64,000 nt of DNA from Octopus vulgaris (GCA_951406725.2 OX597841.1:22940001-23004000), one strand, 5' to 3'; counted from the first letter of the stretch, positions 36,915-62,500 are shown. Numbers and translations are program-made. Notes: a model not told the origin generated them from the sequence alone.

Positions 36915-37500
36915 CAATCTTCCTCTGTATGGTAGAGGATGGCTGCCACCTGCCATGCCTCGTCAATTTCAAGGGGCAATCTACCTATCCTTACTCTGGG
37001 CGCTCGTTTGCCACAGTAAGTAGGCAGTGGTGCCCACTCAGCCGATTTCAAGGCCACAGTGGAGTATTTATTTATTTGCTTCATTTTCGTTTACAAAGCA
37101 CACCTCCACCATGCCGAATGTCCGCCCTCTGGTGTAGAACGTGGTACAGACCTTCACCTTTCTCAAACACTCTTCTACTGCTTCTGTCGCTGCTATTTCT
37201 ACCTTCTTCGTTGCTATGTTTAACGTTCTGTAGATAATAGTTCTTTTCTCGATATTCTCAATAACTTCTTTGGGAGGCGTCAGCCTAAGACAGTCTCCCT
37301 CCTTTTGCAACAAACTGTTATACTTCTTGAGGTTCTTATCTTTAACTTCTTATTCCACGGACTTGCAGTAGCTCCGCTGACAGGCTTTTGCCAGTCGCTG
37401 CAGCATAACTGCCCGCTTGTACTGGTCTATTTTCCATGTTATTTACAACTTCACCCATAAATGGGGAAGACAAATAAAAATTCCAACAAATTCATCAGGT
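36915..37500 (-). mobile_element. Degenerate Gag-like LINE ORF1 relic, short copy
   Basis: MENRPVQAGSYAAAT... through frameshifts to RGRTFGMVEVCF...PRVRIGRLPLEI; paralogous to 47165-47750. Confidence 0.55.
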
Positions 37501-39511
37501 TAACAATCATCATCATCGTTTAACGTCCGCTCTCCATGCTAGCATGAGTTGGACGATTTGACTGAGGACTGGCAAACCAGATGGCTGCACCAAGCTCCAA
37601 TCTTGATCTGACAGAGTTTCTACAGCTGGATGCCCTTCCTAATGCCAACCACTCCGAGAGTGTAGTGGGTGCTTTTGTATTCCACCAGCACAAGGGTCAG
37701 TCAGGCAGTTCTGGCAACGACCTCGCTTGAATCCTTTTACACATGCCCCCAGCACAGGTGCCAGTAAGGTGACATTGGTAACGATTCCGCTCGAATGGTT
37801 GCCCTTTTACGTCCCACTGACACGGAAGCCAGTTGGCAACGGCCACGCTCTAATGGTCTTTTTTTACATGCCACCTGGACAGCAGCCATTCCAGCGGCAC
37901 TGGCAACGACCTCACTCGAATGTTTATTCACGTGCCACCGGCACAAGTGGTAGTGAGGCGATGCTGGTAATGATCACGCTTGAATGGTGCTTTTCACGTG
38001 CCACCGGCATAGAAGCCACTAAGCCACACTAGCAACGACCACGCTCGATGGTGCTCTTAGCGCTCCACTAGCTCGGATGCCAGTCCTCGAATAAGAATTA
38101 CAGTACTCACATTTCCCAATTTACTCAAATACAACGACGACGTCAAACTATCACCCGTCAACTATTCCCATGACAGTTCTCTCAGCCCTAAGGCAGCAAG
38201 CTGGCAGAAACGTTAGCACGCCAGGCGAAAGGCTAAGCATGACTAATTCAAAACAATATGACATTTACGGTATATAGGCGCAGGAGTGGCTGTGTGGTAA
38301 GTAGCTTGTCTACCAACCACATGGTTCCGGGTTCAGTCCCACTGCGTGGCATCTTGGGCAAGTGTCTTCTGCTATAGCCCCGGGCCGACCAATGCCTTGT
38401 GAGTGGATTTGGTAGACGGAAACTGAAAGAAGCCCGTCGTATATATGTATATATATATATATGCGTGAGTGTGTTTGTGTGTCTGTGTTTGTCCCCCTAG
38501 CATTGCTTGACAGCCGATGCTGATGTGTTTGCGTCCCTGTCACTTAGCGGTTCGGCAAAAGAGACCGATAGAATAAGTACTGGGCTTACAAAGAATAAGT
38601 CCCGGGGTCGATTTGCTCGACTAAAGGCGGTGCTCCAGCATGGCCACAGTCAAATGACTGAAACAAGTAAAAGAGTAAAAGAGAGAGAGTATCTAAAGAT
38701 GGCTATAGCGAGTGTAACTCTTTAACATTCAGATTCTTGTGTGAAATGTAATGTTGAATCCAGCAAAGTCCATCTTCTCACCCCTACCATACATCAATGG
38801 AAATTGTAGTTGTGATACCAGTGCGGGTGGCACATAAATGAACCATCCGAACATGGCTGTTGCCAGCGCCGACCCGACTGGCCTCCGTGCTGGTGGCACG
38901 TAAAAAGCACCCTCTATGCTCATGGAGTGGTTGGCGTTAGGAAGGGCATCCAGCTGTAGAAACACTGCCAGATCAGACTGGAGCCTGGTGCAGCCTTCTG
39001 GCTTCCTAGACCCCAGTTGAACCGTCCAACCCATGCTAGCATGGAAAGTGGATGATGATGATGAAACAATACACTGTTTATTAAACTCACAATGGAAGTG
39101 CAAATAAAGTTATCATCTACTCTTGAATTTCAGCCGCTTGTTTTTTTGTAGTATATAATATTCTTAAGCAAGCAAAGCACCCATTACACTCTCGGAATGG
39201 TTGGTGTTAGGAAGGACATCCAGTTGTAGAAAAAACAACGCCAAACCGACTAGAGTGTGGTGCAGCCTTCCAGGCTGTCAGCCCGGTCAAACTGTCCAAC
39301 CCCATATCAGCATGGACAATGAATGTTAAATGATGATGATGACGATGATGATGATAATGAATCAACATCTCAGACAACATTTTCATTGATCATGACACTT
39401 ATAAAAACCATCCCCTTTTTTCAAGCAAGCTTTTACTGCACAAGCAATATATATATATATATATATATATCATCATCATCATCATCATCGTTTGAAATAT
39501 ATATATATATG

Positions 39512-39677
39512 TGCTTTATTTAAAAGCAGCAGATTCAACAAAACCTGTTACTTGGAGTTTCACGTTCCCGTTCGTCGGACAGTTTTGTCAAAATTTTAAC
39601 AAAACTGTCCGACGAACGGGAACGTGAAACTCCGAGTAACAGGTTTTGTTGAATTTCTGCTGCTTTTAAATAAAGCA
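39512..39677. repeat. Near-perfect ~80 bp-arm palindrome; each arm contains a minimal hammerhead motif
   Basis: Arms are reverse complements around ~39593. The right arm (39598-39650) reads stem I CTGT/ACAG, CCGACGA, stem II ACG-GGAA-CGT, GAAA, stem III ACTC/GAGT, GUA. Confidence 0.8.
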
Positions 39678-40034
39678 TATTACTCTACCCCTGGTATTTG
39701 AGTGCTCTTTTTTTCCTCCTTGTTTCACATTTATGTGTTTACTCCGGTATATATATATAATAGAAATATGTTACAAAAAGAAAATAGAGACTATACGTGG
39801 TAATGTAAGGGGAAAGTAAGAAAAATAGACGAAAATGCACGTTGTAAATCAAAAAAGTGAAGGGTTTTTATGAAAAGTAAGGAAAGATATATACAATTAG
39901 ATGAACTGTGGTAGGAATAAAAGCAATAAAAGTCATTATTGTGAAATTATTAAAGAGATTGAACCATACCGGTTTCGTAAATTACTCATCATTGCTTTGA
40001 ATACAACAATTCATTGCTTTGAATGCACACCAAT

Positions 40035-40075
<41 letters not shown>

Positions 40076-40825
40076 TCATCATTTAGCGTCCGTTTTCCAT
40101 GCTAGCATGGGTTGGACGGTTCAACTGGGGTCTGTGAAGCCGGAAGGCTGCATCAGGCCCAGTCAGATCTGGCAGTGTTTCTACAGCTGGATGCCCTTCC
40201 TAACACCAACCACTCTGTGAGTGTAGTGGGTGCTTTTTACGTGCCACCCGCACAGGTGCCAGACGGAGCTGGCAAACGGCCACGAACGGATGGTGCTTTT
40301 ACGTGCCACCGGCACGGGGGGCCAGGCGAGACTGGCAACAGACACAAACGGATGTGCTTTTACATGCCACCGGCACGGGGGCCAGGCGAGGCTGGCAATT
40401 TGTGTGTGTCTTTTGGTTTTTATTGGGATTAATTTACATTTAGGACATTTTAAGAATATAAATATTATCTTCATAATATAAAACAAACACCACAATTTTA
40501 GAGATTTTTTGTAGAGTTAAATCTTAATAAAAGTTCTCTTTTTGAGAAAGAGTTGTTTTGAAGATAGTTAAATCGGGAAGAGTCCATTTGCAAACACACA
40601 TGCACATATGTATATATATATATCTCAATAGGTGAATGAATTATCCTATGTTTATCGTCAGCATGGAAAATTCGTTGAACCGAAACCTGGGTAGCAAATT
40701 CACGTCAGAAAACACAGTTGAAGCGACCTGTCCAAGGGTAGAAACTCCGGGTTCATGTGCAGAAATTTGTGTGTTGTATATGAATAAATGAAAGAATGGA
40801 GTCGAACGAAGATGTTAACAAAATT

Positions 40826-40918
40826 CCTTTACTCTCGACATATGTTTCGAAGACAACATGGTTTCATTCCAAAGGAATAAAGGGAGCATTATGCAATCTT
40901 CTCATCAGGAAAGAAAGG
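40826..40918 (-). ncRNA. Type I hammerhead ribozyme with canonical core
   Basis: Minus strand: CCTTTCTTTC-CTGATGA-GAAGA...TCTTC-GAAA-CATATG-TC-GAGAGTAAAGG, i.e. stem I, CUGAUGA, long stem II, GAAA, palindromic stem III ACAUAUGU, GUC cleavage site (between 40837 and 40836). Confidence 0.8.
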
Positions 40919-41259
40919 GAGCCTTCGTTTTGTTTACCATGCAGGAAATCATCAAAATGTTTGTTTGTCTTGTTGTTGAGAGAGGCTCTCAAAGAAAAAA
41001 TAAGAGGAAAAGAAAAGAAATCAAAGAAAATGAAAGTAAGAACAATGTCATCTATGACAACAGTTACAAGAACAACGTAACAGAAATGAAAAGAAAAAGA
41101 ATGGTGATGAAAGGTGTGGGTGTATACTTATACATACATACTAACATACATGTGGAGGCGCAATGGCCCAGTGGATAGGGCAGTGGACTCGCGGTTTCGA
41201 TTGCCAGACCGGGCGTTGTGAGTGTTTATTGAGCGAAAACACCTAAAGCTCCACGAGGC

Positions 41260-42370
41260 TTGGACTGCATTTTGTAGTTTCATTATTTCAACTCCTTGAA
41301 GGATTGAGCAGATCTTTTCAAAGTACCATTGTCAATATAGGTAGCATGTTGCATAATGTCAAACTGAAGGTGGGGAGCTATATGCAGCGAAGAAAAATTT
41401 CAGGAGCTGTTCGATAGAGCAGAAAAAATGATTTATCAACTTGACTTTTCTCCTTTGGGGTTACCCATGCAACGAAAAGTTCCTAAAAGATACCAGGAAG
41501 GAAATGCATTAAAATATCAACACTGCACTGTTTTGGATCATTAGAAAGTGCAGTACTTGCAGGTAGTGGATACTGCAATAGCAAATTTGAAAGATAATTT
41601 CTTTTCAGGATTTAGCAGATTATGAAAAACTGAGCAATATTTTACTCAATGGAAATTTTGTGCTGAAGTGATCATGCAGTATTCAGAGCTTGATGAATTT
41701 CCTTTAACCCTTTCGATAACAACCAGGCTGAAACCGCCCCTGGTTCTGTAGTACAAATGTCTTGTTTTCATAAGTTTTGAATTAAAATCTTCCACCAAAC
41801 CTTAGTCACAATTAATGTTCCTAACACTAGCTTAATGATAACCAAGTTATTTTACTAAATTCTTTGTTGTATCTAAAATAATTGAGAGAAACATAGAGCA
41901 TCTCAAAATAAATATAGTAACAAAAGGGTTAAGGAATGAAATAGTTTTTTTATAGAAATCATCATAATCATCATTTATCATCATTTAACATCCGCTTTCC
42001 ATGCTGGCATGGGTTGGACGGTTCAACTGGGGTCTGGGGAGCCCGAAGGCTGCACCAGGCTCCAGTCTGATCTGGCAGTGTTTCTACAGCTGGATGCCCT
42101 TCCTAACGCCAACCACTCCGAGAGTGTAGTGGGTGATTTTATATGCCACCGACACAGGTGCCAGACGAGGCTGGCGAACGGCCACGATCGGATGGTGTTT
42201 GTTACGTGCCCACAGCACGGATTTGGTGAAATGCAACCAGAAGACCATCGCATGTTTCCAAATGTTGAGCGGTTGCTCAGTCTCCTTATAGTGTGTCCAA
42301 CCAGTTCTTGTGAAGATGAAAGATCTTTTAGAGCACGGCAGTGACTCAAACCTTGGCTGCGATTGACCAA
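41260..42370 (+). mobile_element. Fragmented hAT transposase relic (C-terminal half), interrupted by a MITE and a retroposon
   Basis: LFDRAEKMI...QRKVPKRY...QYLQVVDTAIANLK and [27 protein letters not shown]...LKPWLR (hAT dimerisation motif). Other copies at 43328-43810 and 49528-51170. Confidence 0.75.
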
Positions 42371-43799
42371 GACTCATCAAAAGATGGAATCACATTCTAA
42401 TAGACCACGTTCATAGAGGTGTTTTATTCTTTGCTCACTTGATATTTTAACGAAGATGCAGTCTTCACTAAAATATAAATTCTTTTTAACCCTTTAGTGT
42501 TTAAACTGGCCATATCTGACCCAGTATATTCTACGTGTATTATATTTAAACTGGCCATATCCAGCCTCTCACACCTAACCTACATTGACATTCTAAAAAT
42601 AAACAATCACATCATTGAAACCCCAAAGCTATAAGATAATGTTTTATTAATTCAAAACAATTTGAGTAAAAAATATTACATTTAACAGAGTCATCTGAAA
42701 ACTAAAGGGTTGAACTTATTTTTTATATCTGAATTTCATTTGAATCGTCATCATCATCATCGTTTAATGTCCGTTCTCCATGCTAGAATGGGTTGGACGG
42801 TTCGACCGGGGTTCTGGGAAGCCAGAAGGCTACACCAGGCTCCAGTCTTATCTGACAATGTTTCTACAGCTGGATGCCCTTCCTAACGCCAACCTGTCCG
42901 TGAGTGTAGTGGGTGCTTTTTACATGCCAACTGCACTGGTGCCAGGCGAGGCTGGCAACGGCCACGGTCGGATTGGTGTATTTTACATGCCACCGGCACA
43001 GAGGCCAGTCGAGGCAGCGCTGGCATCGGCCACGAGTCGGATAGTGCTTTTTACGTACCACCAGACCAGGGATCCTGGCTGGTTCAATTCGATTTCGATT
43101 ATATAAAATTTAATTAGCATAAAATTTTCCCCATGTGATTGGGTCCAGGAAAGGCACAATAAGCACTACGAACATGCTTCTTTAAGAATCAACATATATT
43201 GGTTTGTCTCCCTCACATTTTAAATGCAAACAAGAAACCCTGACTATGTATATGAACTCGAAGACTAGAATGGTTTTTCTCCAGGGTGGATTCTTACATG
43301 CTTTTTTAAAAATCACCAATCGAAAATATTTTATAGAAATCATCATAGTGGATCATCTCTCAAAGATCATTGTAAAATGTTTGGTGAAATGCAACCAGAA
43401 ATCCATCGCATGTTTCCAAATGTTGAGCGATTGCTCAGGCTACTATTTTTATTCCTTCTCGAGCCATTCCTGGCTCATAAGGGCCGGTTTCCCGGTTTCC
43501 TTGGCGTATAGGTTCTTCACCTGGATGGGACGCCAGTCCGTCGCAGGTGAGCTGCAAGATGCAGGAGGAAAGAGTGTGAGAAAGTTGTGGCAAAAGAGTC
43601 AGCAGAAATTCGCAATTACCTTCTGCCGGAGTCGCAAAGAGCTTAGGTGTTTCACTCATAAACACACACATTGCCCGGTCTGAGATTCGAACCCGCGATC
43701 CTTCAACCCCGAGTCCGCTGCTCTAACCACTAGGCCATGTGCCTCCACTCAGTCTCCTTATAGTGTGTCCAACCAGTTCTTGTGAGGATGAAAGATCTT

Positions 43800-44964
43800 T
43801 TAGGGCACTGCAATAGCACTGTGTACTTTTTGGTGAATAACAAGACTTGTTCTCCCAGAAAACATATTCCCACACGTTTTACACATGAAGCGTTTATTAT
43901 CCCCAGTATGAATCCTTTTGTGAACTATAAGATTAGAACTATCAGAGAAACATTTCCCACACGTCTCACAATGGTAGGGTTTCTCCCCGCTATGGATTCG
44001 TTTGTGTCTCTTCAAATGACAATTATTCTTAAATGACTCCCCACATGTCTCACAACGATAGGGCCTTTCTCCTGTGTGTACCCGCCTGTGTGTTGCTAAG
44101 TTACCATGAGAAGCGAAATATTTATCACATGTTTCACAATGATAGGGTTTTTCTCCAGAGTGTCTCCTTTGGTGAACCACAAGACTGGAATTCGTATTGA
44201 ACGATTCCCCACACATTTTACAGCAGAATGGTTTCTCTCCACTATGAATCCTCCTGTGTTTTTTTAAAACGCTTCTAACATTAAACGATTTGCCACAGAG
44301 ATCACAGGTGAAGGGTTTCTCTCCCGTATGTACCCTCACGTGGTTTTTCAAATCAGATCTGCTCACAAAACTTTTCCCACATATATCACAGTCAAAGGGC
44401 TTTTCCCCACTGTGTATTCGTTGATGAGCTACAAGAGTAGAACGTTGAGAGAATGATTTACCACACATTTCACAACGATAGTTTTTTTCCCCCGTGTGGA
44501 TTCTTACGTGAACTACAAGATCATATTCATCAAAGAAAGCTTTCTCACACGTTTCACAACGATACTTTTTTTCTGCTGTATGTATTCGTTTGTGCTTTGT
44601 TAAATAACTTTTACAGACGAATGATTTCTCACATAATTCACACTGATATGGTTTTTCTTCACTGTGTAATTTTTTATGATTTGTTAAATAACGATTAGCA
44701 GCAAAATCTTTCTCACACGTTTCACATCGATATAGTTTCTCTGTTTTGTGTATTTCTTTGTGCGTTAAAACTTCTTGTTCTGAAGAGAATGTTTTCCTAC
44801 AAATCTCACAGCGATATTCAGGAATATTCCTTTTATCTAATAATCATTTCTTTAGATTCATTAATTAAAGGCTTTTCGTCGCTGAATGTCCGTGTAACTG
44901 TTTCTGTATCGGTCTGAACAGTCGGGTTAGAAGTGTTCAACCGATTAATGTCCTGCATTTTCAT
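43800..44964 (-). pseudogene. C2H2 zinc-finger gene ZF6, 12 fingers, broken by one 1-bp insertion at ~44844 (pseudogene or assembly error)
   Basis: The paralogous ATG is at 44964. GAAATGATTATTA replaces GAAATGTTATTA and gives an early TAA; everything downstream is one open finger frame. Confidence 0.8.
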
Positions 44965-46379
44965 TCTTCAGAATTCAGGAATATATTAATATATAACGAT
45001 CCAGTTCCTTGTCTTGAATCTCATAAGAATTTTGATAACGTTTGTGGAAAATATGTAATGCAGATATATATTCTATTCGCTACGAAAATGCAGATTGTCA
45101 ACTGGGTCGTCTCTTTTCTCTTTTAAGAGATGTGGATATAGTTTAATAAAGGCAAAAACGATTTTAGAGAGAGATCATAAATGACAGGTAACAGAACTTC
45201 AGGTGAACATTTTGTTTTTTTCTCGTAGCTTATAACAAAACAATCCCTTAGCATAATAGTAAATCATTGAAAGACAGGGCGATGCAATTTTCCATTAACG
45301 ATTGTAAGGTGCGCGCAATGATATTCCGAATGAGTTACAAACAATCGACGATGTAACTTCATCTATGATGGAATTAATTAATGATGAAGGTGATAGAACA
45401 CTGACCCTGAAACATGTAGGCAATCAGATGTCGTCCACAAACATTAATATGTCCTCGTAATATAATTATTACACATTATAACAATTAAATTGCCGAAACG
45501 ATGGATTTATCGGTGACATAGGTTAAAAGTCCCCACCAAAATTTAGTACATTCAGAAATGCCGTTCTTTGGCGTTTATCAGTTTGGGGTTGATTAAATGT
45601 GTACAAATTAAAAACAGATGTTGATGTAATCTATTTACCCGCTGTCCTGAAATTTCTGGCTTTGTGGCAAAATTTGAAATCAAATATTAGCACACTTCTG
45701 TTTTAATGATATAAAGTAAAACTTATCCTTAAGTATTTCGCCCGGCGGGCTAACGTAATATGAAAAATATCTAGCTTCTGACCAGTGTAATTCAGAATTT
45801 CAAGAAAATACTCTCATTTAATATCTCAGAAGATTGAATTGATTCAATCAACTTAGTCTATGACAAATGCTCTAAAATACTTTTATTTCAGTCCTTTAGC
45901 ATTCAAAAGTAATGCTTATTTATTCATATTGTTTGAATTAATCATGCATTATCTCTGTTACGATATAGGTATACATGTCTGGTGTAAAATGGTATTACAC
46001 AATAAAATACTTGGTGTGGATATATAACAATAACGTATCGCAGAAATATATATTAACACAGAACGCATTCCGTATTACTCAGGCGTGGGTATGATACTCA
46101 GTATTCACTGTTCAACTACCGACTGCTAAATCATCACATATCGAACTAACACCCATTTATTTATTCTGGCACTACGGCCATAACTTAGGGGAGATAGCAC
46201 AAGGACAGACAAAGCAATAGATTGGGGTACATGAAAATACATATCGGATGAATCATGAATATAATTAAAATGAGAATGAAATGGCTTTCCTACCCTCCAA
46301 AGGAGGTAGTTCCATTTTACTGTTTTCTTAAATTAGTTTTACTTTGCAGTCCTGCATCTTTTCTTTAACACAAAATTAC

Positions 46380-47750
46380 AACAAATGCTGCATTATTATA
46401 TCGTCAAAAATTTCAACAGACGGCAGCTCGTCGTATCTATACTGAAATCCTGTTATTTCAACTCTTTCCCCCCCCCCCCAAATAGTTCTACTAACAACTC
46501 CCCTCTTTCTCTCTCCAACAGCACACCCTTCTTACCTTCATGGTTTTCCATTTTCACTCTGATTATATTTTTCATTATTGTTACTCTCTTTTCAATTTCA
46601 ACACTTTTTTTAATATATTATGAAGCTTCTTAATTTTCTCCCTGTACATATTGTTCTCTGATATCCTTCACCACTCGCTTCGTCCATCATAAATTTCTCT
46701 GTCTCTTTCATTTCCTTCCTTCTTCCTTGCTAGTTGAGGGCGACAGTTCATGCGTTCGCATTTCACTTGATTTTATATCTTTTCTTTCTTATTCTTCTCT
46801 TCATTTGTCTTTTTTTTTTCTTATTGGGCTTTTTGGTGGTGATTCGAAGTACTTTTTTCTTTTCCCCACCGTAAATGGCTCTTCCATTTTCTCTTCCTCT
46901 ACTGCTGTACTCTCTTGAATTTCTTTTTCTGTTATTTCACTCTCGTGTTTCTGGGGACACTTGGCCTTCATGTCTCCCCCTTACTCCACACAAAAAACAT
47001 ATTGGAGATCTAGCTTCCACAACAATCCTCAATCTAGTTTCATCCGGCAAAACCAGCTTTTCCACAATCTTATGGATGTCTGGCAGACTTATACGAACTG
47101 TCACCTCTAGCCCATATCCGTAATAGTTCACCTCCGTAGTTTTGGACACTTTCAGAATTTCTACATCTTCCTCTGTATGGTAGAGGATGGCTGCCACCTG
47201 CCATGCCTCGTCAATTTCAAGGGGCAATCTACCTATCCTTACTCTGGGCGCTCGTTTGCCACAGTAAGCAGGCAGTGGTGCCCACTCAGGTGATTTCAAG
47301 GCCACAGTGGAGTATTTATTTATTTGCTTCATTTTCGTTTACATAGCACACCTCCACCATGCCGAATTTCCGCCCTCTGGTGTAGAACGTGGTACAGACC
47401 TTCACCTCACTCAAACGCTCCTCTACTGCTTCTGTCCTTGCTGTTTCTACTTTCTTCGTTGCTATGTTTAACGTTCTGTAGATAATAGTTCTTTTCTCGA
47501 GATTCTCAATAACTTCTTTGGGAGGCGTCAGCCTAAGACAGTCTCTCTCCTTTTACAACAAACCGTTATACTTCTTGAGGTTCTTATCCTTAACTTCTAT
47601 TTCACAAACTTGCAGTAGCTCTGCTGACAGGCTTTTGCCAGTCGCTGCAGCTTAACTTCCCGCTTGTACTAGTCTATTTTCCGTGTTATTTACAACTTCA
47701 CCCATAAATGGGGAAGACAAATGAAAATTCCAACAAATTCAACAGGTTTA
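46380..47750 (-). mobile_element. Degenerate Gag-like LINE ORF1 relic with zinc-knuckle remnant, long copy
   Basis: RLRIVVEARSPICFLCGVRG then, after a frameshift, MKAKCPQ (CCHC-knuckle-like), followed by a K/E-rich tail. No ORF2 is visible. Confidence 0.6.
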
Positions 47751-49051
47751 TAATAATCATCATCATCATTTAACGTGCTCATGATAAGTATTCTTCAATG
47801 TCAGTAGATTAGAAGTTTAGATTTGTGAGAAATTTTCTTACATCAAGCAATTAAAATATTTTCCTTTTGTATATATTTGTTTGCCTTTTTAAGAGACCCA
47901 CCCTCCTCTTCACTGTCAGGAGGCACAAGCACTTACACACACATGTACACATGCAACGAGAATTTCTGCCTACCAAATTCAATCACAAAGCTTTGGTTGG
48001 CCGAAGGCTAAAGCAGAAGACACTTGCCCAAGGTGCTGTGCAGTGGGACTGAACTCGAAACCATGTGGTTGAGAAGATGGTTAATGCTAAAAGATTTACA
48101 AAGAATACTTTCAACAAATCTTCTGAATATTCTCCTCCTGGACATAACTAGTAACAACAAGGCTTTTGAATGTATAATTTTCCACAAATTTTATAGACAA
48201 ATGTTTTACTCTTGCATTTTTCTCATTAACCCCTGTACTATTCTAATCAGGATTAATGAGGGATCTCATTGTAATTCACAGTAATGGATTTCCCAAAAAC
48301 TTTAACCCTTCAGCACATAAACTAGCCATATCTGACCTCAGATACCGGTCGAACCGTCCAACCCATGCTAGCATGGAGAACAGACGTTAAACGATGATGA
48401 TGATGGTGATGACTGTAAGTTTCAATCAGTATTGAATTTTGTTTGTTCGATATTTACATCCATTTGGTAAAAATTAAGAGATAAACTCATCAATAATTTG
48501 AATGACAATTGTATGACATTTTTATATGTATTTGTCTCTCTAAGTGAATATAGAAAAATAGACAATACACTGTTTATTAAACTCACAATGGAAGTGCAAA
48601 TAAAGTTATCATCTACTCTTGAATTTCAGCCGCTTGTTTTTTTGTAGTATATAATATTCTTAAGCAAGCAAAGCACCACTACACTCTCGGAATGGTTGGC
48701 GTTAGGAAGGACATCCAGTTGTAGAAAAAACAACGCCAAACCGACTAGAGTGTGGTGCAGCCTTCCAGGCTGTCAGCCCGGTCAAACTGTCCAACCCCCA
48801 TATCAGCATGGACAATGAATGTTAAATGATGGTGACGATGATGATGATAATGAATTGTTAACATCTCAGACAACATTTTCATTGATCAGGACACTTATAA
48901 AAACCATCCCCTTTTTCCAAGCAACCTTTTACTGCACAAACAATATATATATATATATAAAATAATAATAATAAATATTAGGGAATAAATCCAAATTTAC
49001 AGGGAAAAATCAGATTTATGATTGAATCCAATTTTATAGTAAAATATAATA

Positions 49052-49288
49052 CAATATTAATTAGAGACAAAACCACTATTATGCAAATCAAACAAAGAAA
49101 GACTTAATCCAATACATTAAAAATTTTATATAAATTAAATATAATTAAGATTAATTAAGATATCTAACACCAACCATTCTGAGAGTGCAATGGGTGCTTT
49201 GCTTGCTTAAGAATATCTTAATTAATTTTTTATGTATTGGATTAAGTCTTTCTTTGTTTGATTTGCATAATAGTGGTTTTGTCTCCAA

Positions 49289-49296
<8 letters not shown>
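49052..49296. repeat. ~70 bp inverted repeat inserted in a (TA)n tract
   Basis: 49052-49125 is the reverse complement of 49224-49296. Confidence 0.8.
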
Positions 49297-49348
<52 letters not shown>

Positions 49349-51113
49349 AATATGTTACAAAAAGAAAATAGAGACTACACATGGTAATGTAAGGGGAAAG
49401 TAAGAAAATTAGACAAAAAAAACACATTGGAAATCAAAAAAAGTTAAGGCTTTTTATGCAAAGTGACGAAAGATATATACAATTAGATGTTTTGTGTTTA
49501 ACCTCTTGTGGGTAGTAAAGAAATGGGTATCTTTTAGGAACTTTTCATTGCATGGGTAGCCCCAAAGGAGAAAAGTCAAGTTGATAAATCATTTTTTCTG
49601 CTTCATCGAACAGCTCCTGAAATTTTTCTTCGCTGCATATAGCTCCCCACCTTCACCAGTTTGACATTATGCAACATGCTACCCATATTGACAATGGTAC
49701 TTTGAAAAGATCTGCTGAATCCTTCAAGGAATTGAAATAGTGAAACTACAAATTGCAGTCCAAGAATACAGTTGCCCATAGAGTGACATGTAAGAATACC
49801 ATTAGTTCTGGATGTAATGTTGGTGCCAAACTCATTGGTTGCTTCTTGTAAAGAAATGAGGACATCTGAATAATTTTGAAGGTCTTTGACTGGAGAAATT
49901 CGTTAGCCATCGAGTAGGATAAAGGCTTTAAGGGGCATGGTGATGATACTTCCTTTTTTTCATCATGTGATAAATATGTGTGCTTAAATTTCCCTTATGT
50001 ACTATATAGTTATTTCTTTACTACCCACAAGGGGCTAAACACAGAGAGGACAGACAAACGGATTAAGTCGATTATATCGACCCCAGTGCATAACTGGTAC
50101 TTAATTTATCGACCCCGAAAGGATGAAAGGCAAAGTCGACCTCGGCGGAATTTGAACTCAGAACGTAGCGGTAGGCGAAATACCACTAAGCATTTCGCCC
50201 GGCGTGCTAACGATTCTGCCAGCTAGCTGCCTTCCCAGTTCCTAAAAGATACCAGGAAGGAAATGCATTAAAATATCAACACTGCACTGTTTTGGATCAT
50301 TAGAAAGAGCAGTACTTGTAGGTAGTGGATACTGCAATAGCAAATTTGAAAGATAATTTCTTTTCGGGATTTAGCAGATTATGAAAAACTGAGCAATATT
50401 TTACTCAATGGAAATTTTGTGCTGAAGTGATCATGCAGTATTCAGAGCTTGATGAATTTCCTTTAACCCTTTCGTTACCAACCAGGCTGAAACCGCCTCT
50501 GGTTCTGTAGTACAAATGTCTTGTTTTCGTAAGTTTTGAATTAAAATCTTCCACCAAACCTTAGTCACAATTACTAGCTTAATTACTAACACTAGCTTAA
50601 TGATAACCAAGTTATTTTACTAAATTCTTTGTTGTATCTAAAATAATTGAGAGAAACATAGAGCATCTCAAAATAAATATAGTAATGAAAGGGTTAAGGA
50701 ATGAAATAGTTTTTTATAGAAATCATCATAGTGGATCATCTCTCAAGGATCATTGTAAAATATTTGGTGAAATGCAACCAGAAGACCATCGCATGTTTCC
50801 AAATGTTGAGCGGTTGCTCAGTCTACTTTTTTTATTCCTTCTCGAGCCATTCCTGGCTCATAAGGGCCGGTTTCCCGTTTCCTTGGCGTATAGGTTCTCC
50901 ACCTGGATGGGACGCCGGTCCGTTGCAGGTGAGCTGCAAGATGCAGGAGGAAAGAGTGGGAGAAAGTTGTGGCAAAAGAGTCACCAGAAATTCGCAAAGA
51001 GCTTAGGTGTTTCACTCATAAACACACACATTGCCCGGTCTGAGATTCGAACCCGCGATCCTTCAACCCCGAGTCCGCTGCTCTAACCACTAGGCCATGT
51101 GCCTCCACTCAGT

Positions 51114-52322
51114 CTACTTATAGTGTGTCCAACCAGTTCTTGTGAGGATGAAAGATCTTTTAGGGCACTGCAATAGCACTGTGTACTTTTGGTGAATAAC
51201 AAGACTTGTTCTCCCAGAAAACATATTCCCACACGTTTTACACATGAAGCGTTTATTATCCCCAGTATGAATCCTTTTGTGAACTATAAGATTAGAACTA
51301 TCAGAGAAACATTTCCCACACGTCTCACAATGGTAGGGTTTCTCCCCGCTATGGATTCGTTTGTGTCTCTTCAAATGACAATTATTTTTAAATGACTCCC
51401 CACATGTTTCACAACGATAGGGCCTTTCTCCTGTGTGTACCCGCCTGTGTGTTGCTAAGTTACCATGAGAAGCGAAATATTTATCACATATTTCACAATG
51501 ATAGGGTTTTTCTCCAGAGTGTCTCCTTTGGTGAACCACAAGACTGGAATTCGTATTGAACGATTCGCCACATATTTTACAGCAGAATGGTTTCTCTCCA
51601 CTATGAATCCTCCTGTGTGATTTTAAAACGCTTTTAACATTAAACGATTTGCCACAGAGATCACAGGTGAAGGGTTTCTCCCCCGTATGTACCCTCACGT
51701 GGTTTGTTAAATCAGATTTGATCACAAAACTTTTCCCGCATATATCACAGTGAAAAGGCCTTTCTCCGCTGTGTAGTCTTTGATGAGCTACAAGAGTAAA
51801 ACGATGACAGAAAGATTTACCACACATTTCACAGTGATACCGTTTTTCTCCCGTGTGGATTCTAACGTGAACTACAAGATCATATTCTTCAAAGAATGTT
51901 TTCTCACACGTTTCACAACGAAATTTTTTTTCTGCGGAATGTATTCGTTTGTGCTTTGTTAAATAACGTTTACAGACGAATGATTTCTCACATAATTCAC
52001 ACTGATGTGGTTTTTCTTCACTGTGTAATTTTTTATGATTTGTTAAATTACTATTAGTAGCAAAATCTTTCTCACACGTTTCACATCGATATAGTTTTTC
52101 TGTTTTGTGTATTTCTTTGTGCGTTAAAACTTCCTGTTCTGAAGAGAATGTTTTCCTACAAATCTCACAGCGATATTCAGGAATATTTTTTTTATCTAAT
52201 AATCTTTCTTTAGATTCATTAATTAAAGGCTTTTCGTCGCTGAATGTCCGTGTAACTGTTTCTGTATCAGTCTGAACAGTCGGGTTAGAAGTGTTCAACT
52301 GATTAATGTCCTGCATTTTCAT
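51114..52322 (-). CDS. C2H2 zinc-finger protein ZF7, 11 intact fingers plus a frameshifted 12th, 402 aa
   Basis: Open ORF. A 1-bp shorter T run at ~51187-51190 relative to ZF6 turns [11 protein letters not shown] into HQKYTVLL... Confidence 0.88.
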
Positions 52323-53089
52323 TCTTCAGAATTCAGGAATATATTAATATATAACGATCCAGTTCCTTGTCTTGAATATCATAAGAATTTTGATAACGTT
52401 TGTGGAAAATATGCAATGCAGATATATATTCTATTCGCTACGAAAATGCAGATTGTCAACTGGGTCGTCTCTTTTCTCCTTTAAGAGATTTGGATATAGT
52501 TTAATAAAGGCAAAAACGATTTTAGAGAGAGATCATAAATGACAGGTAACAGAACTTCAGGTGAACATTTTGTTTTTTCTCACAGCTTATAACAAAACAA
52601 TCCCTTAGCATAACAGTAAATCATTGAAAGACAGGGCGATGCAATTTTCCATTAACGATTGTAAGGTGCGCGCAATGATATTCCGAATGAGTTACAAACA
52701 ATCGACGATGTAACTTCATTTATGATGGAGGTGATAGAACACTGACCCTGAAACATGTAGGCAATCGGATGTCATCCACAAACATTAATGTGTCCTCGTA
52801 ATATAATTATTACACATTATAACAATTAAATTGCCGAAACGATGGATATATCGGTGACATAGGCTAGAAGTCCCCAACAAAATTTAGTACATTCAGAAAT
52901 GCCATTCTTTCAAATGATCCAACCCGTCGTTGGCGTTGCTACGGTATAAGTATCGGTGTACTTCTGTTGTTAATCAAAAGGCATTTGCCAGCAAAATAAT
53001 TACTTATCAACGAAATAGTCTCTTCGTGCTCCCTCAGCCTGCGAAAAATAGCCACCGAATTTGCCTCAAATCCAAAGCAATGTTTTTGT

Positions 53090-56000
53090 TTGGTGTTATT
53101 CCATGTATGTGAAACAAAAACAACATTTTGTTTAATAACTTACATAAAAACCATTAAACTAAAAGAAACATTAATTGGGCCGTTAAGTTTGTTTTCACTT
53201 TTAAACACGTAGATTTTTAGCTTTGGATTCATGATTTGAGGCAAATTCGGTGGCTATTTTTCGCAGGCTGAAGGAGCACGAAGAGACTATTTCGTTGATA
53301 AGAAATAACTATTTTGCTGGCAAATACCTTTTAATTAACAACGGGTTGGTCATTTGAAAGAATGGCATTTCTGAATGTACTAATTTTTGTTGGGGACTTT
53401 TAACCTATGTCACCGATATATCCATCGTTTCGGCAATTTAATTGTTATAATGTGTAATAATTATATTACGAGGACACATTAATGTTTGTGGACGACATCC
53501 GATTGCCTACATGTTTCAGGGTCAGTGTTCTATCACCTTCATCATTAATTAATTCCATCATAAATGAAGTTACATCGTCGATTGTTTGTAACTCATTTTA
53601 AATATCATTGCGCGCACCTTACAATCGTTAATGGAAAATTGCATCGCCCTGTCTTTCAATGATTTACTGTTATGCTAAGGGATTGTTTTGTTATAAGCTG
53701 CGAGAAAAAACAAAATGTTCACCTGAAGTTGTGTTACCTGTCATTTATGATCTCTCTCTAAAATCGTTTTTGCCTTTATTAAACTATATCCACATCTCTT
53801 AAAGGAGAAAGGAGACGACCCAGTTGACAATCTGCATTTTCGTAGCGAATAGAATATATATCTGCATTGCATATTTTCCACAAACGTTATCAAAATTCTT
53901 ATGATATTCAAGACAAGGAACTGGATCGTTATATATTAATATATTCCTGAATTCTGAAGAATGAAAATGCAGGACATTAATCGGTTGAACACTTCTAACC
54001 CGACTGTTCAGACCGATACAGAAACAGTTACACGGACATTCAGCGACGAAAAGTCTTTAATTAATGAATCTAAAGAAATGTTATTAGATAAAAGGAATAT
54101 TCTTGAATATCGCTGTGAGATTTGTAGGAAAACATTCTCTTCAGAACAGGAAGTTTTAACGCACAGAGAAATACACAAAACAGAGAAACTATATCGATGT
54201 GAAACGTGTGAGAAATATTTTGCTACTAAGCATGCTTTAAGAAAACACAAAAAATTACACAGTGAAGAAAAACCATATCAGTGTGGATTATGTGAGAAAT
54301 CATTCGTCTGTAAAAGTTATTTAACAAAGCACAAACGAATACATACGGCAGAAAAAAAGTATCGTTGTGAAACGTGTGAGAAAACATTCTTCGATGAATA
54401 TGATCTTGTAGTTCACGTTAGAATTCATACGGGAGAAAAAAACTATCGTTGTGAAACTTGTGAGAAGTCATTCAGTCATCGTTTTACTCTGGAAGCTCAT
54501 CAAAGAATCCACACCGGTGAAAAACAGTATCGTTGTGAAACTTGTGGTAAATCATTCTATCAACGTTCTACTCTTGTAGCTCATCGACGAATACACAGTG
54601 GGGAAAGGCCTTTTCACTGTGATATATGTGGGAAAACTTTTGTGGTCAAATCTGATTTAACAAACCACGTGAGGGTACATACGGGAGAGAAACCCTTCAC
54701 CTGTGATCTCTGTGGCAAATCGTTTCATGTTAAAAGCGGTTTAAAATTACACAGGAGGATTCATAGTGGAGAAAAACCCTACACCTGTGATCTCTGTGGC
54801 AAATCTTTTACCGTTAGCAGCCACTTAAAATCACACATGAGGACTCATACTGGAGAACGACCATTCTGCTGTAAAACGTGTGGGAAATCTTTCAGTGAGA
54901 ATTCCAGTCTTGTAGATCACCAACGGAAACATACTGGGGAAAAACCTTATCGGTGTGAAATATGTGATAAGTATTTCGCTTCTAATAGTAACTTAAGAGA
55001 TCACCGGCGCATACACACAGGAGAAAGGCCCTATCGTTGTGAGACGTGTGGGCAGTCGTTTCTAACTAATTCTAAATTGGAGAGACACAAACGAATCCAT
55101 AGTGGGGAGAAACCCTACCATTGTGAGACATGTGGGAAACGGTTCTCTGATAGTTCTAATCTTGCAGGTCACAAAAGGACACATATCGGGGATAAACGCT
55201 TCATGTGTAAAACATGTGGTGATTCGTTTCCTGGGAGATCAAGTCTTGCTATTCACCAAAGAATACACAGGGCAATAAAACCATGAAACTTTGAAATCTG
55301 TGGAAAATATTTTCGATCAGAAAATGATTAAAAAAAGCACTTAGGAATCCACGCTTGAGAAAAACCGTTCTAGTGTTCATATACACAGTGACATTAGAGA
55401 AAGGCATTTTCACTGCGAAATCTTTTAGCACTAATGGTCCCTTAGAAAGACCAACAAATACACACAAGCGAAAATTGTTTTAACAGACAAATGTAAGAAA
55501 ATTTCTTACGGTACCCCAACATTGAAGAATATTCATTGTGGGCATGTGTTGTAAGAATCAATCTTTTACAGATTTTATCTGAGAAAAAAAGCCTGTATCT
55601 TAATCCTTTAGCACTCACACCTGACATCTACATCAGCTACGTGATTGTTTACTTTTAGAATGAGATTGTAGGGTAGGTGTGAGAAGAAGGAGTTTGCTGG
55701 TTTCAACATAAAGACGGATACAGCTAGTGTAACCCGCTAGCTTTCAGATTCCTTGTCAAATTTAATGCTTATTTATTCGCATAGTTTTCAATTAATCCTG
55801 CATTATCTCAGAGCTTTGAAATTTTGATGATGTGATTGTATATTTTTACTATGACATTGCAGGGTAGGTGTGAGAGGTCAAATCTGGCCTGTTTGAGCAT
55901 AGAACAAGTAGAATATTTGGGCAGGCCAGATATGGCCAGTTTAAGTGCTGAAGGGTTAAAGTGTTTGGGAAATCCATTACTGTGAATTACAATGAGATCC

Positions 56001-59000
56001 CTTGTTAATCCTGATTAGATTAGTACAGGGGTTAATGAGAAAAATGCAAGGGTAAAACATTTGTCTATAAAATTTGTGGAAAATTATACATTCAAAAACC
56101 ATGTTAATCATAAGCAAATATGTCCAGAAGTGGTAAGTAGCTTGTTTACCAACCACATGGTTCCGGGTTCAGTCCCACTGCATGGCATCTTGGGCAAGTG
56201 TCTTCTACTATAGCCTCGGGCCGACCAATGCCTTGTGAGTGGATTTGGTAGACGGAAACTGAAAGAAGCCCGTCGTATATATGTATATATATATATATGC
56301 GTGAGTGTGTTTGTGTGTCTGTGTTTGTCCTCCTAGCATTGCTTGACAACCAATGCTGGTGTGTTTATGTCCCCGTTACTTAGCAGTTCGGCAAAAGAGA
56401 CCGATAGAATAAGTACTGGGCTTACAAAAGAATAAGTCCCAGGGTCGAGTTGCTCGATTAAAAAGGCGGTGCTCCAGCATGGCCGCAGTCAAATGACTGA
56501 AACAAGTTAAAGAGTAATATTCTTTGCAAATCTTTTAGCATTAATGGTCCCTTAAAAAGACAAATACATACAAAAGGAAAATCTTTTCATAGCTGAATGC
56601 AAGGAAATTTCTTACACAACTTCAGTCACTCACTCACACTCTTAGCTGCACTCACCTGGCTCTTGTACTTACATATATCTTCATCAGTTATTCCTTCATA
56701 GTATTTTTACAATTATACTCTGGCCTAACGCTTAACCAACATTTTTAATCTTGCATCACCCATTTTTTAACACATGCTCCTTTATACAATTCACATTTGC
56801 CGTTCCTGTGCCATTCTTATCATCATCATCATCATCATTTAACATCTGCTTCCCATGATTGCATGGGTTAGACGGTTTGACAGGAGCTGGCTAGTGAGAA
56901 GACTGCACCAAGCCTCAGTGTCTGTTTTGGCATGGTTTTTTTTACAGCTGGATGTCCTGCCTAACACCAACCACTCTGCAGAGCGGTTTCCATTTACTAC
57001 GAACATACATTTCACTGGTAGGAGAGTCATGAGGTGGGAATATTTAGCAATCAGATCTTTACATCCAATCTCCATCATTCACTAGAATATTATTTACATG
57101 ATAAAAAAGCTAAACTAATCTCGACTTTGTGTGAAATAGACTCCAGGAATAATTTCATCTTTTGGCAAGCTTCTTTCTGAGCCTAACCATCAATATAAAT
57201 GCAGCACGACCACTTGACAGAGAGCATTGGGTTAGAGGAGAGAGAACAGTGAAAGACAGCAGAGATGAGGCAATGAGTATCCATAGACAGATGCTGACAA
57301 CATCCACAATGAACGATCAGCAACAACAACACCACGACTCTCATTTCACTTTCTCACGGGCATGGCCGTGTGGTTAGGGAGCTTGCTTCCTAGTTACATG
57401 GTTTCGGGTTCAGTCCCACTGCGTGGCACTCTGGGTAGGTGTCTTCCACTATAGCCTCGAGCCGACCGGAGCTTTGTGATTGAATTCGGTAGGTGGAAGT
57501 TGCTGCCGTGTGTGTACATGTACGTGTAGGTGCTTGTGCCTCTCCGAAAGAGAGAGAGGGTAACAATAACATTTCAACTCTTTTGACATTCTGTCATTCA
57601 TAGCACAGACATTGCTTATATTTTTGTGTAGGAAAAGAATAAAATTTTGTCTATCAAAAATTGCAATGGATTCAGTATTCTTTATACATCATCATCTTAA
57701 TTATTGTCCTTTAACATAGGCATAGGAGTGGCTGTGTGGTTAGTAGCTTGCTTACCAACCACATGGATCCGGGTTCAGTCCCACTGCGGGGCACTTTGGG
57801 CAAGTGTCTTCTACTATAGCCTCGGGCTGACCAAAGCCTTGTGAGTGGATTTGGTAGATGGAAACTGAAAGAAGCCCGTCGTATATATATATATATATAT
57901 GGCTGTGTTTGTGCCCCTAGCATTGCTTGACAACCGATGCTGGTGTGTTTATGTCCCTGTCACTTTGCGGTTCGGCAAAAGAGGCCGATAGAAAGAATAA
58001 TTCCCGGGGTCGAGTTGCTCGACTAAAGGTGGTGCTCCAGCATGGCCGCAGTCAAATGACTGAAACAAGTAAAAGATGAAGATCTGTTTTCCATGCTGGC
58101 ATGGGTCGGATTGGTTGGCTGAAGCTAGAGAGCTGCATCAGGTCCCACTCTGATTTGCCTTGGTTTCTATGGTTGGATGCCCTTCCTAATGCCAACCACT
58201 TCACAAAGTGTATTGGGTGCTTTTAATGTGGCAATGGCATGAACACGTTTACATGGCACCAGCACAGGACTGTTGCAGGAAAATCCTTTTCACCAGGCAA
58301 TGGTGGCTCATTGATAAAATCACGAGGGTTGCTGCTTCAGAGAATTTTTAGCCGTTGGTTTAATATGGTAACAAAAGAGTTAATACCAAATTACTTAAAT
58401 ATGAGACTTTTATACAAAACTGAGTTGAACTAGTTTTAATCTTTGATTTAACTCTTTAGCATTCACATAATTCTTTCAAAAGTAATGCTTATTCATCCAC
58501 ATTGTTTTGTATTAATCCTGCATATCCTGAGATTTTCATGAGGAAACTAAATTTTTAGAAAGATATTGTATGATAGGTATGAGAGGCCAGACCTGACCAG
58601 TTTGAACATAAACTAAGAAGAATGTTTTGGCTAGATACGTCCAGTTTAATTGCTAAATGATTTAATCTTACGTTTATATATTTGTTGTGCAAGATTTTTT
58701 TATGTGAAATCGTGTGTTGAAACAGATATTGTTGTAGAAGAAGCACTCCGTCGAGGGTTCCGGTTGATCCGAATCAACGGAACAGCCTGCTCGTGAAATT
58801 AACGTGTAAGTGGCTGAGCACTCCACAGACACGTGTACCCTTAACGCAGTTCTCGGGGCTATTCAGCGTGATACAGAGAGTGACAAGGCCGGCCCTTTGA
58901 AGTACAGGTACAACAGAAACAGGAAGAAAGAGTGAGAGAAAGTTGTGGTGAAAGAGTACAGCAGGGTTCGCCACCCCACAACCTGCCGGAGCCTCGTGGA

Positions 59001-59471
59001 GCTTTAGGTGTTTTCGCTCAATAAACACTCACAACGCCCAGTCTGGGAATCAAAACCGCGAGTCCGCTGCCCTAATCACTGGGCCATTGCGCCTCCAGAT
59101 ATTGTTGTATTTCGGAATGGTCATGTTGCCAGTTTAGCCAATAAAAACACACACCCTCCAGCTTCTTGCTAGCCTGTTTATTAATCGTATTAATCAGTTT
59201 TGTACATATTTTTATATTTTAGTATAAAATATGTAAAATTTGTACACCCACATTATATTAATTTAACATAGAATAACGAAAGAGCTACTTTAAAAGGTAT
59301 ATGCTTAACTATACTTTAAACTGGCAGATTTATGAAACATGCCATGTACCTCCAAGCAATCTTTCGGGTTCTGTTCGTAGTTTTCTTAATACCAGGACGC
59401 TGAGAAAGTGAAGAAAAAAAAAGCCTCTTTGAGTCGGTGACTGATATTGTTTACCAATACCGAAAAATTGC
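53090..59471 (+). repeat. Inverted copy of one whole tandem gene unit (ZF8 unit)
   Basis: 53090-55400 is the reverse complement of ~29770-31980, and 57175-59475 is the reverse complement of ~31981-34105. Confidence 0.85.
53961..55286 (+). CDS. C2H2 zinc-finger protein ZF8, 14 fingers, 441 aa, inverted relative to the cluster
   Basis: Intact ORF with the same leader as ZF4-ZF7, 28 aa longer than ZF4. Confidence 0.93.
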
Positions 59472-59511
59472 CATGGCAATCTTTCGGTAGTGGTAAATGA
59501 TATCAGTCACC
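59436..59511. repeat. Spacer-less palindrome, 38 bp arms with 4 mismatches, at the inversion junction
   Basis: GGTGACTGATATTGTTTACCAATACCGAAAAATTGCCA|TGGCAATCTTTCGGTAGTGGTAAATGATATCAGTCACC, centred at 59473/59474. Confidence 0.9.
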
Positions 59512-62500
59512 CACACAATCATCCCGCATGATACAAAGAGGGTAGTCTGAAAAACAGGGTAAATGACGTTGTCTCCTCATGCCTCAGTCTGTATACCAGT
59601 AACTAAGGATCGCCAAAAACATTACATACATTGTTTACATCTAATGTATAATTACAGTTTCTACAAGGAATGAGGACACTCTTGGTTTCTTATTCTTTCC
59701 CTTAAATTCGTTCCACTTTTTGCATCAACCTTTTAATTGTTTTTTGCGTTTTTTTTCCTGTTTTTGTTTCTTCTTCACTTTTTCAGCATCCAGCTTCCTG
59801 GTACTAAAAAAAAAAAAAAAACGTACGAACAGAGCTCGAAAGATTGCTTGGCGATACATGGCATGTTTTTATAAATCTGCCAGTATCGTTAAGCACGTAC
59901 GTTTTAGTAGCTCTTTCATAATTGTTTCTTAAAATCGATATAACGTGTGTGTGCAAATGTTATATACTTTATACGAATAGATAAAAAAATCGTATCTTTT
60001 CCATCTCAGGCACAGATTAGATCCAAATCCGCTGTACAAAACTGATTAATACGATTTAAACTATTTAGCAATTAAACTGGAGGTATCTGGCCAAACATTC
60101 TTCTTAGTTTATGTTCCGCCTGGTCAGATCTGGCCTCTCATACCTATCATACAATATCTTTCTAAAAATTAAGTTTCCTCATCAAAATCTCAAAGCTAGA
60201 AGATATGCTTGATTAGTACAAAACGATGTGGATGAATAAGCATTACTTTTGAAAGAATTATGTGAATAAAGATTTAAATCAATAATTAAAACTTGATCAA
60301 CTCCGTTTTGTGTAAAAGTTTAATATTTAAGTAATCTGGTATTATCCCTTTTGTTACCATATTTCTGTTGAAATACACAGTTAATGCTTCAGTTAGTTTT
60401 GACAACAGTAAAGAATTTATTAAAAACAGTCAAAACTATATGCGCAGGAGTGGTTGTGTGGTAAGTAGCTTGCCACATGGTTCCGGGTTCAGTCCCACTG
60501 CGTGGCATCTTGGGCAAGTGTCTTCTTCTATAGCCCCGGGCCGACCAACGCCTTGTGAGTGGATTTGGTAGACAGAAACTGAAAGAAGCCCGTCGTATAT
60601 ATGTATATATATATGCGTTTGTGTGTCTGTGTTTGTCCCCCTAGCATTGCTTGACAACCGATGCTGGTGTGTTTACGTCCCCATCACTTAGCGGTTCGGC
60701 AAAAGAGACCGATAGAATAAGTACTGGGCTTACAAAGAATAAGTCCCGGGGTCGATTTGCTCGACTAAAGGCGGTGCTCCAGCATGGCCGCAGTCAAATG
60801 ACTGAAACAAGTAAAAGAGAGTAAAGAGTATATGCAATAACCAGATGTAAGCACCTTGTCTATATATACAGCATTATTTTTGGACAGAAAAATAAGGTGG
60901 CGAGCTGTCAGAATCGTTAGCACAGTGGGCAAAAAAATTTTTGCATTTCATCCGTCCTTATGTTTCGAGTACAAATGCCCCCCGATGTCACCCTAGTCTT
61001 TCGTACTTTCCGGGTCGATGAAATGTGTATCTCAGTTATCTATCTATCTGTCTGTCCTTCTGTCTCTCTATCCAACCATCCTCTTCGGAGTGTTTCACCA
61101 TGCACACACACATCGCGTATATATAATCGCTTTCCAAGGCAACGACGAAAGCAAACAGTAACTTGTACCTAATGTAGAAAGGGTTGTTATTATTATTAAG
61201 GTAGCGAGCTAGGTAGAATCGTTAGCAACCTGGACGAAATTCTTAGCGGTATTTCGCTCGTCGCTATGGTCTGACTTCAAATTAATTCGAGGTCAACTTT
61301 ACCTTTCGTCCTTTCAGGGTCGATAAATTAAGCACCAGTCAATTACTGGGGTGGATGTAATCGGCTTATCCCCTCCCGACAAATTTCAGACCCCGTGCCT
61401 ATAGTAGGAAGGATTATTATTAAGGCGACGAGCTGGCAGAAACGTTAGCACGCTGGACGAGATGCGTAGCCGTATTTCGTCTGCCGTTATGTTGTGAGTT
61501 CAAATTCCGCCGAGGTCGACTTTGCCTTTCATCCTTTCGGGGTCGATAAATTAAATACCAGTTACGCAATGGGGGTCGATGTAATCGACTTAATACCTAT
61601 GTCTGTCCTTGATTGTCCCCTCTGTGTTTAGCCCCTTGAGGGTAATAAAGAAATAGGTATTTCGGAATGTTTTCGGTTTGAACGGCAGTTTTTTCTAGCG
61701 GTGTCATATGAAATTGTCACCCATAATTATGACCCTAGTATCGATCTATTGCATTTCTATCTGTTTTAGGGTTAGGGTGGGGAAGGGTATCTTTTTTTTT
61801 TTCACAAATGTAAATAAACCCAATCTGTTTCTTAAACGAGGGACATATTCATACGGCACAGAATGTTTTCACCCCAATAGACGTCATTGATTGGTTGAAA
61901 TTGCAGAAAAAAAACAACAAATGTCTTACAAACTATAGAATTTTCTCAATAAAGCCAAGAGAAAAAGATGTTTTATAAACACATTCTACCAGTATACGAA
62001 GTTTAAAAGTGTTTAGTTACGTGGAAATTATTTAAAAAAACTGCCGTTCAAACCGAAAAGATCCCGACTCAATCCTAAAATAAAATGGTGAGAGTTATTT
62101 TGAACATTGTGTCATTATTTTATCTGTCACTTGTTTCGGTCCTTTGACTGCAGACCATGCTTGGGTACCGCTTTGAGAAGTTCTTCGTCGAATGAAACGA
62201 CCCCAGTACTTGTCTTTTTAAGCCTAGTACCCATTCTAACGGTTTCTTTTACCGTTTGCCGAACCGCCAAAAAAACAACAAATATCTTACAAACTATAGT
62301 ATTTTCTCAATAAAGCCAAGAGAAAAAGATGTTTTATGTAACACATTCTACCAGTATACGAAGTTTTAAAGTTTCTTAGTTACGTGGAAATTATTTTAAA
62401 AAAAACTGCCGTTCAAACCGAAAAGATCCCGGAATTGTTTTATAAAGGAGAATATTGGTGGAAGAGAGACAAGACACAGAAAAGCGGTTTGGAAGCTGAA

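Follow-up and report, generated by a model that had tools for sequence, protein, structure and literature searches.

A zinc-finger gene period of Octopus vulgaris inverted between two copies of a MITE terminus, probably by a transposase

How can exactly one unit of a tandem gene array be turned round with both breakpoints at the same site of directly repeated units? The question is raised by a stretch of 64,000 nucleotides from the 2.8 Gb genome of Octopus vulgaris (GCA_951406725.2, OX597841.1:22940001-23004000; called the window, with positions counted from its first letter), in which single-frame genes for C2H2 zinc-finger proteins are clustered. A preliminary description of the stretch had noted the flip and had rightly excluded homologous recombination between direct repeats. 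The site in question proves to be the left terminus of a ~140 bp miniature inverted-repeat transposable element (MITE) with GGC ends, which tandem duplication has carried into each period. Since both breakpoints lie at the tip of a MITE copied with the repeat, the inversion is likely the work of the transposon's own cutting enzyme, and we consider it likely that a transposase, probably of Merlin type, acted on two directly repeated MITE ends. The features on which the argument turns are as follows; TIR denotes a terminal inverted repeat.

53090-59471: inverted period, comprising an orphan MITE end, spacer, zinc-finger gene E and upstream flank
31968-32033, plus strand: uninverted site, with an orphan MITE left end that begins at 31984
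53062-53092: left joint, flank joined to flank without a transposon end, with four deletions on the left arm
51297-54989: imperfect palindrome around the left joint, arms of ~1.8 kb, 83% alike overall
59422-59472, minus strand: orphan MITE left end inside the block, its right end lost by a ~230 bp deletion common with the 31984 copy
59473-59474: 2 bp spacer between the tail-to-tail MITE ends of the right joint, bridged by a contig of run X1
59475-59614, plus strand: complete MITE (GGC...GCC) resident at the right joint
59615-59622, plus strand: right copy of the 8 bp target duplication, matching the left flank of the 25762 copy at 7/8 positions and that of the 31984 copy at 6/8
25762-25882, plus strand: third MITE copy, complete apart from a 19 bp deletion in its left TIR, with ~50 bp of the same flank before it

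Self-BLAST aligns 53090-55183 to 31980-29897 (minus strand, 89%) and 57560-59475 to 33915-31981 (minus strand, 91%); in the uninverted copy the ends of the block thus adjoin each other at 31980/31981. The block is the reverse complement of spacer, gene and upstream flank, one period of ~6.4 kb. Because the array is non-uniform, with a different spacer separating genes B, C and D, 'one unit' here means one period of the type found at gene A and 31981. Reverse-complementing 53090-59471 restores ACACCAA followed by CATGGCAATC at the right joint, and the 29-mer of the site occurs once in the window and in none of 100 shuffles. The flip of one period with both breakpoints at one paralogous site, as first described, is thus borne out. 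The breakpoints do not carry homologous inverted repeats; the shared site is directly repeated, and only 4 bp of it are palindromic.

The two joints differ in kind. At the right joint the order is TIR tip, AT, TIR tip, tail to tail. The flank of E breaks off 3 bp beyond the tip of the complete MITE. Had the join been made at 3 bp, one base must have been lost later; had it been made at 2 bp, the E flank must have lost one. At the left joint the E arm is intact up to the base equivalent to 31980, and the deletions previously reported there are ~7, 92, 3 and 25 bp missing from the flank of gene D when set against the inverted arm; the D arm alone is affected. The flip has left two open zinc-finger frames, D and E, head to head across a palindromic upstream region of ~1.6 kb. 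The D flank also holds, at 52932-52966, a remnant of the TIR of a related MITE; A and E have no insertion at this position. An extra 41 bp in the D flank, considered as a lineage marker, was dropped, being this related-MITE remnant and absent from the D-type contigs of runs X4 and X17.

A query with the right flank finds a dispersed family that matches from the first bases of the flank onwards. Its aligned copies have ~140 bp in common, starting with GGC(A/G)ATC(C/T)TTCGGTA and ending in the inverse of this, in unrelated flanks. At the locus, homology to the dispersed copies begins at the site and ends 140 bp further on, in the inverted repeat, which supports a transposon origin of the breakpoints. 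The element has the marks of a MITE: a short, non-coding sequence of 140 bp with imperfect TIRs of ~20 bp and a target-site duplication (TSD), dispersed among unrelated flanks. Among 16 paired elements with its terminus, drawn from the first 100 listed terminus sites, 10 have a perfect 8 bp TSD, one has a perfect 5 bp match and none has a perfect match at 6, 7, 9, 10 or 11 bp. In the 140 bp family alone, 5/18 copies show at most one mismatch at 8 bp. The MITE end has 56 exact 20-mer sites in the genome; the terminal 12-mer, which is common to several MITE families, has 4,180 exact occurrences (control, 151). That a shared breakpoint should lie within 3 bp of this MITE terminus has a chance of ~0.001, calculated post hoc. 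A 22 bp minimal element (L177) consists of two overlapping TIR tips only and has a perfect 8 bp TSD.

The earlier proposal that adjacent units were broken at one identical sequence is supported, but the sequence is the terminus of a DNA transposon and not an anonymous fragile site. The 18-mer that had been suggested for a search of other rearrangement junctions occurs once in the genome, and what recurs is the TIR. A 16-mer was likewise rejected as the recurring element, having one match outside the locus without further homology. The two small deletions ascribed to the third MITE copy are present as differences of 6 bp and 19 bp, of which the 6 bp could instead have been gained by the 31980 and inverted copies. 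This MITE lies in an isolated piece of 290 bp (flank, MITE and spacer, 25715-26001) left of A, perhaps what remains of a unit since lost or inverted; the flanks were examined for a second large inversion extending to 25715, but none was shown. A second, unclassified dispersed repeat (32033-32208 and 59649-59954) is ~70-80% alike to many loci, has copies that end in microsatellites and contains an 11 bp inverse match to the MITE TIR. The repeat at 32033-32208 was rejected as the cause of the breakpoints; it starts at least 50 bp from the site.

The inversion is real. Over the right joint, a single 260 nt contig of run X1, which may be the assembly's own sample, covers 59313-59572 with 0 differences. 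The contigs of four further runs were compared on 31640-32340, and in three of them (X2, X4 and X17, each from a different study and under a different organism label) there is a contig of the inverted-arm (E) type whose match ends at 31980 and which continues for 47 letters; simulation of the left joint with k=31 predicts exactly 47. As these letters are not displayed, the left-joint match in X2, X4 and X17 is one of geometry. Each of these runs also holds an intact-site contig beside the E-type contig. Together, the X1 contig and the recurring geometry make it very likely that the event is inherited and shared, neither somatic nor artefact, and it appears to be a single, old event. A strand-change joint is not listed in the four further runs, and the right joint is seen in X1 only. 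Run X16 has the intact site only among its eight listed pieces, at single-contig depth over 31760-31975, a hint, but only a hint, of an uninverted lineage, for contigs cannot show absence. Raw reads of X21-X23 (~3% of each run) give zero cover of unique sequence and hence have no bearing on the joints. In X4 and X17 the intact site at 31980 has one base replaced, 4 bp beyond the MITE terminus.

Joints of the same tail-to-tail kind recur in the genome. With a strict pattern and spacers of 0-12 bp there are 13, all with 3-6 bp, where 0.02 are expected by chance; with spacers of 13-40 bp there is one (0.04 expected). A loose pattern gives 27 including this locus (control, 1), with spacers, tallied by hand, of 2 bp (1, this locus), 3 bp (4), 4 bp (8), 5 bp (13) and 6 bp (1). 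In 8 of the 26 other joints the spacer is the tail of the resident element's own TSD (at most 0.47 expected; 20 had a testable far end), so that in these one end was joined inside the resident's flank. An excess of end-to-end joints, fixed short spacing and flank DNA between the ends, as expected of IS30/IS911-type targeting of inverted repeats (IRs), are thus all found. Many second arms at the other joints are shortened to a few tens of bp. Among the 26 (at L128-L137, L163-L165, L176, L087, L094 and L228-L236), several second arms are only 12-40 bp of TIR that then run into a duplicated tip or unrelated DNA.

Which transposase could have acted? The Merlin superfamily is defined by terminal GG, TSDs of 8-9 bp and TIRs of 24-462 bp (PMC8101967). 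The MITE has a terminal 5' GG and a TSD in this range (perfect at 8 bp in the 10/16 above); its TIR is visible over ~20 bp in the old 140 bp family and is longer in a younger sister family. Merlin-type transposases are abundant in the genome (150/150 scored candidates above the cut-off), and several of their loci have GGC ends with perfect 8 bp TSDs. An autonomous partner would be expected to carry a DDE_Tnp_IS1595 transposase between the MITE's own TIRs; the closest end of a transposase locus, in the part of the hits examined, matches the MITE terminus at 10/12 positions (L118/L178, L200, L207). With GG ends, TSD and abundant Merlin transposases but no exact partner, membership of the Merlin superfamily is probable. 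One Merlin family (L122, L123, L125, L126, L187, L190 and L192) has near-perfect TIRs, perfect 8 bp TSDs and, at L122 and L125, open frames of 316-320 aa; it may have been recently active.

The following order of events would account for the locus. A ~140 bp MITE inserted upstream of the ancestral gene, as its TIRs and 8 bp duplication show, and tandem duplication then set directly repeated MITE ends one period apart, where they are found. A transposase, probably Merlin-type, likely engaged two such ends. The orphan end then became attached 2-3 bp beyond the tip of the next MITE, a complete one, by a chemistry that can be suggested from the product now present. Finally, host repair would have joined the two freed flanks into the flank-to-flank joint observed, and one arm was eroded, perhaps at repair or perhaps later as a palindrome. 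Of the routes within this account, we tentatively put forward end-targeted strand transfer on the same chromatid. Cutting of both ends with insertion beside the end of the sister chromatid, and cutting of both ends followed by their fusion through end joining, are each somewhat less likely. The timing is compatible with a mobile source: in a sister family of ~420 bp the divergence has a median of 2.9% (55 pairs among 11 copies), and the flipped unit differs from its closest paralogue (A and the 31981 spacer) by 2.6-5%, near this value. Probably some transposase that could use the MITE terminus was at work around the time when E was duplicated.

Several observations weigh against this account. 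The 2 bp spacer is found in none of the 26 other joints, all of which have 3-6 bp, and 18 of these lack the TSD-tail signature. The right joint can equally be described as a 4 bp CATG microhomology, and inspection of the left joint revealed neither a TSD nor a second transposon end. In sets of 20, 20 and 50 loci, which overlap, no transposase gene was flanked by the MITE's exact TIR. The 140 bp family itself is old, with a median divergence of 20%, and mobilisation by the machinery of another family is thus assumed. The agreement in age is indirect: the flip is no older than the E duplication, and the match dates the duplication, not the flip.

A cause independent of transposase was also weighed, in which DNA structure (a TIR hairpin) or open chromatin broke both sites and the ends were rejoined crosswise via the palindromic CATG. 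One CATG is indeed shared at the right joint, an 11 bp inverted repeat lets the TIR pair with a nearby repeat, at a distance of 100 bp in the 31981 copy and 350 bp in the 59472 copy, and the 301 nt region folds at z = -2.6. However, 1.8% of the window lies equally near such an arm, which makes the repeat weak evidence; it is missing from the list for the inverted copy, the centroid structure is nearly unpaired, and the 26 other end-to-end joints at fixed spacing would be left unexplained. We regard such structure-driven breakage as improbable. Re-integration of an excised one-period circle opened at the site had been offered at the outset. In the form weighed here, the opened circle enters the paralogous site beside D in reverse, with or without a transposase. 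In its favour, both block ends look like the 31980/31981 copy, whose period the block repeats in circularly permuted form. The idea needs the same two cuts and a circle besides; since the right flank is the terminal form that lacks the deletion, an in-place flip would give rise to the same likenesses. A circle is not needed to explain the likenesses among the copies, and we give it little credence.

The divergence between copies bears on models that start from one break. The 3' part of E differs from A by 2.6%, from B by 10.8% and from D by 15.8%. Its spacer is 3-5% from the 31981 copy, with which it has the ~230 bp deletion and substitutions in common, and 9-16% from the right flank, from which the right arm of the block diverges from the 19th base on. 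Over ~100 bp the left arms give 5.0% for D-E and 1.9% for A-E; the upstream 600 bp are star-like (~2%; D-E 1.9%, A-E 2.5%) and uninformative. A fold-back inverted triplication (ODIRA, DUP-TRP-INV-DUP) would make each inverted arm a copy of its own flank. The arms are not such copies, which argues against fold-back or single-break models. One of these, a single break in both sister chromatids (or a fold-back) with sister fusions, paralogue recombination and collapse of the right palindrome, would give same-site palindromic joints from one break, and the D-arm remnant and the E arm have one variant in common; since on both sides the arms are not sisters, we find it very improbable. Palindromic joints are also typical of chimeric long reads, and the right joint is bridged in one run only, possibly the source sample. 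An assembly or fold-back artefact is nevertheless barely credible, as the arms differ by substitutions and indels, the block has variants of its own and the left-joint geometry recurs in three other studies. The short spacer is found in internal periods and the terminal right flank is long; that the block has a spacer like the internal 31981 copy beside a right flank of the longer terminal form is explained by an in-place flip of the array's last period, which fits these data.

The flip took place within an array that comprises the following genes and duplication seam.

29878-31122, minus strand: gene A, C2H2 subfamily copy
34227-35387, minus strand: gene B, C2H2 subfamily copy
43800-44843, minus strand: gene C, C2H2 subfamily copy
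51114-52325, minus strand: C2H2 zinc-finger gene D, now head to head with E
53958-55286, plus strand: C2H2 zinc-finger gene E, with an open frame of 442 aa that the flip has put on this strand
~9 kb left of the window, plus strand: paralogue G, the sixth subfamily copy
33100-33107, plus strand: head-to-tail duplication seam of the array, with a copy inside the inverted block at 58362-58369

As E carries the seam internally, the shared site is not simply the unit boundary. A second kind of duplication seam and spacer lies between B, C and D (35970-43329 and 45569-50745), and genes B and G are mosaic, part A/E-type and part C/D-type. The frame of D has a C-terminus unlike that of C (51114-51180) and continues beyond the usual stop, consistent with a 1 bp frameshift. 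G is in inverted orientation (L041, window coordinates -10531 to -1980); its upstream homology ends at a ~300 bp MITE of related terminus with non-matching flanks, and this boundary is possibly a second transposon-bounded rearrangement.

According to a 2026 review, the causes of rearrangements in coleoid cephalopods call for breakpoint analysis that is yet to be done (PMC12988792). The present locus is one base-level case, inside a C2H2 array, that points to a DNA transposon rather than a short interspersed element (SINE). It provides a searchable signature, tail-to-tail TIRs with a flank-to-flank palindrome, and the 26 other joints are a testable clue to the target choice of Merlin-type transposases; our literature search gave no paper devoted to the mechanism of that choice. 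It is conceivable, although we rather doubt it, that Merlin-type MITEs use end targeting like that of IS30/IS911 and that, where ends are duplicated, the transposase serves as a site-specific invertase flipping gene periods. If so, joint pairs like those of V(D)J recombination and whole-period flips that reorient genes would be expected in zinc-finger arrays. In the literature searched, which covers the older genetics thinly, we found no report of this exact joint geometry, of end targeting by Merlin elements or of such IS30/IS911-like targeting by any eukaryotic element.

In inversional V(D)J recombination, signals of the same orientation yield a near-precise end-to-end joint and an imprecise flank-to-flank joint. 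The geometry of the products is alike here; unlike V(D)J recombination, the event is unprogrammed and apparently inherited, there is no recombination signal sequence (RSS), and the ends are separated by 2 bp instead of being flush. Among transposons, the element resembles Merlin and IS1595-like elements in its terminal GG and 8-9 bp TSD, in a genome with Merlin transposases that have GGC ends, and differs in being non-autonomous, with a TIR visible over ~20 bp (against 24-462 bp) (PMC8101967). IS30 inserts beside its own IRs and forms IR-IR junctions involving two bases, with inversions among the products (PMC9333248). As in IR targeting by IS30 (and IS911), one end has been attached at a set short distance beyond another; these bacterial copy-out-paste-in elements have a 2 bp TSD, whereas here a eukaryotic MITE has an 8 bp TSD and mostly 3-6 bp spacers, and neither a circle nor a strand-transfer intermediate was observed. 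In Galileo inversions (PMC2775673) one element lies at each breakpoint and TSDs are exchanged; transposon copies mark natural inversion breakpoints in both cases, but here both ends are at one breakpoint. In alternative transposition of Ac/Ds the ends of two different elements act together, and inversions and end-to-end fusions are among the products (PMC3470690). There, reversed ends give inversions with an 8 bp TSD at both breakpoints, ends in direct orientation lead to deletions and inverted duplications, and the reported fused ends carry 3-5 nt of filler not derived from the flank. At the octopus locus the breakpoints likewise lie at the termini of two different elements, but each breakpoint does not have one end with a TSD: directly repeated ends have given a balanced inversion in which one joint has the two ends and the other has neither, and the spacer matches the flank. 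Inversions made by transposons are as such well known, and the geometry described here is best read as a variant of alternative transposition.
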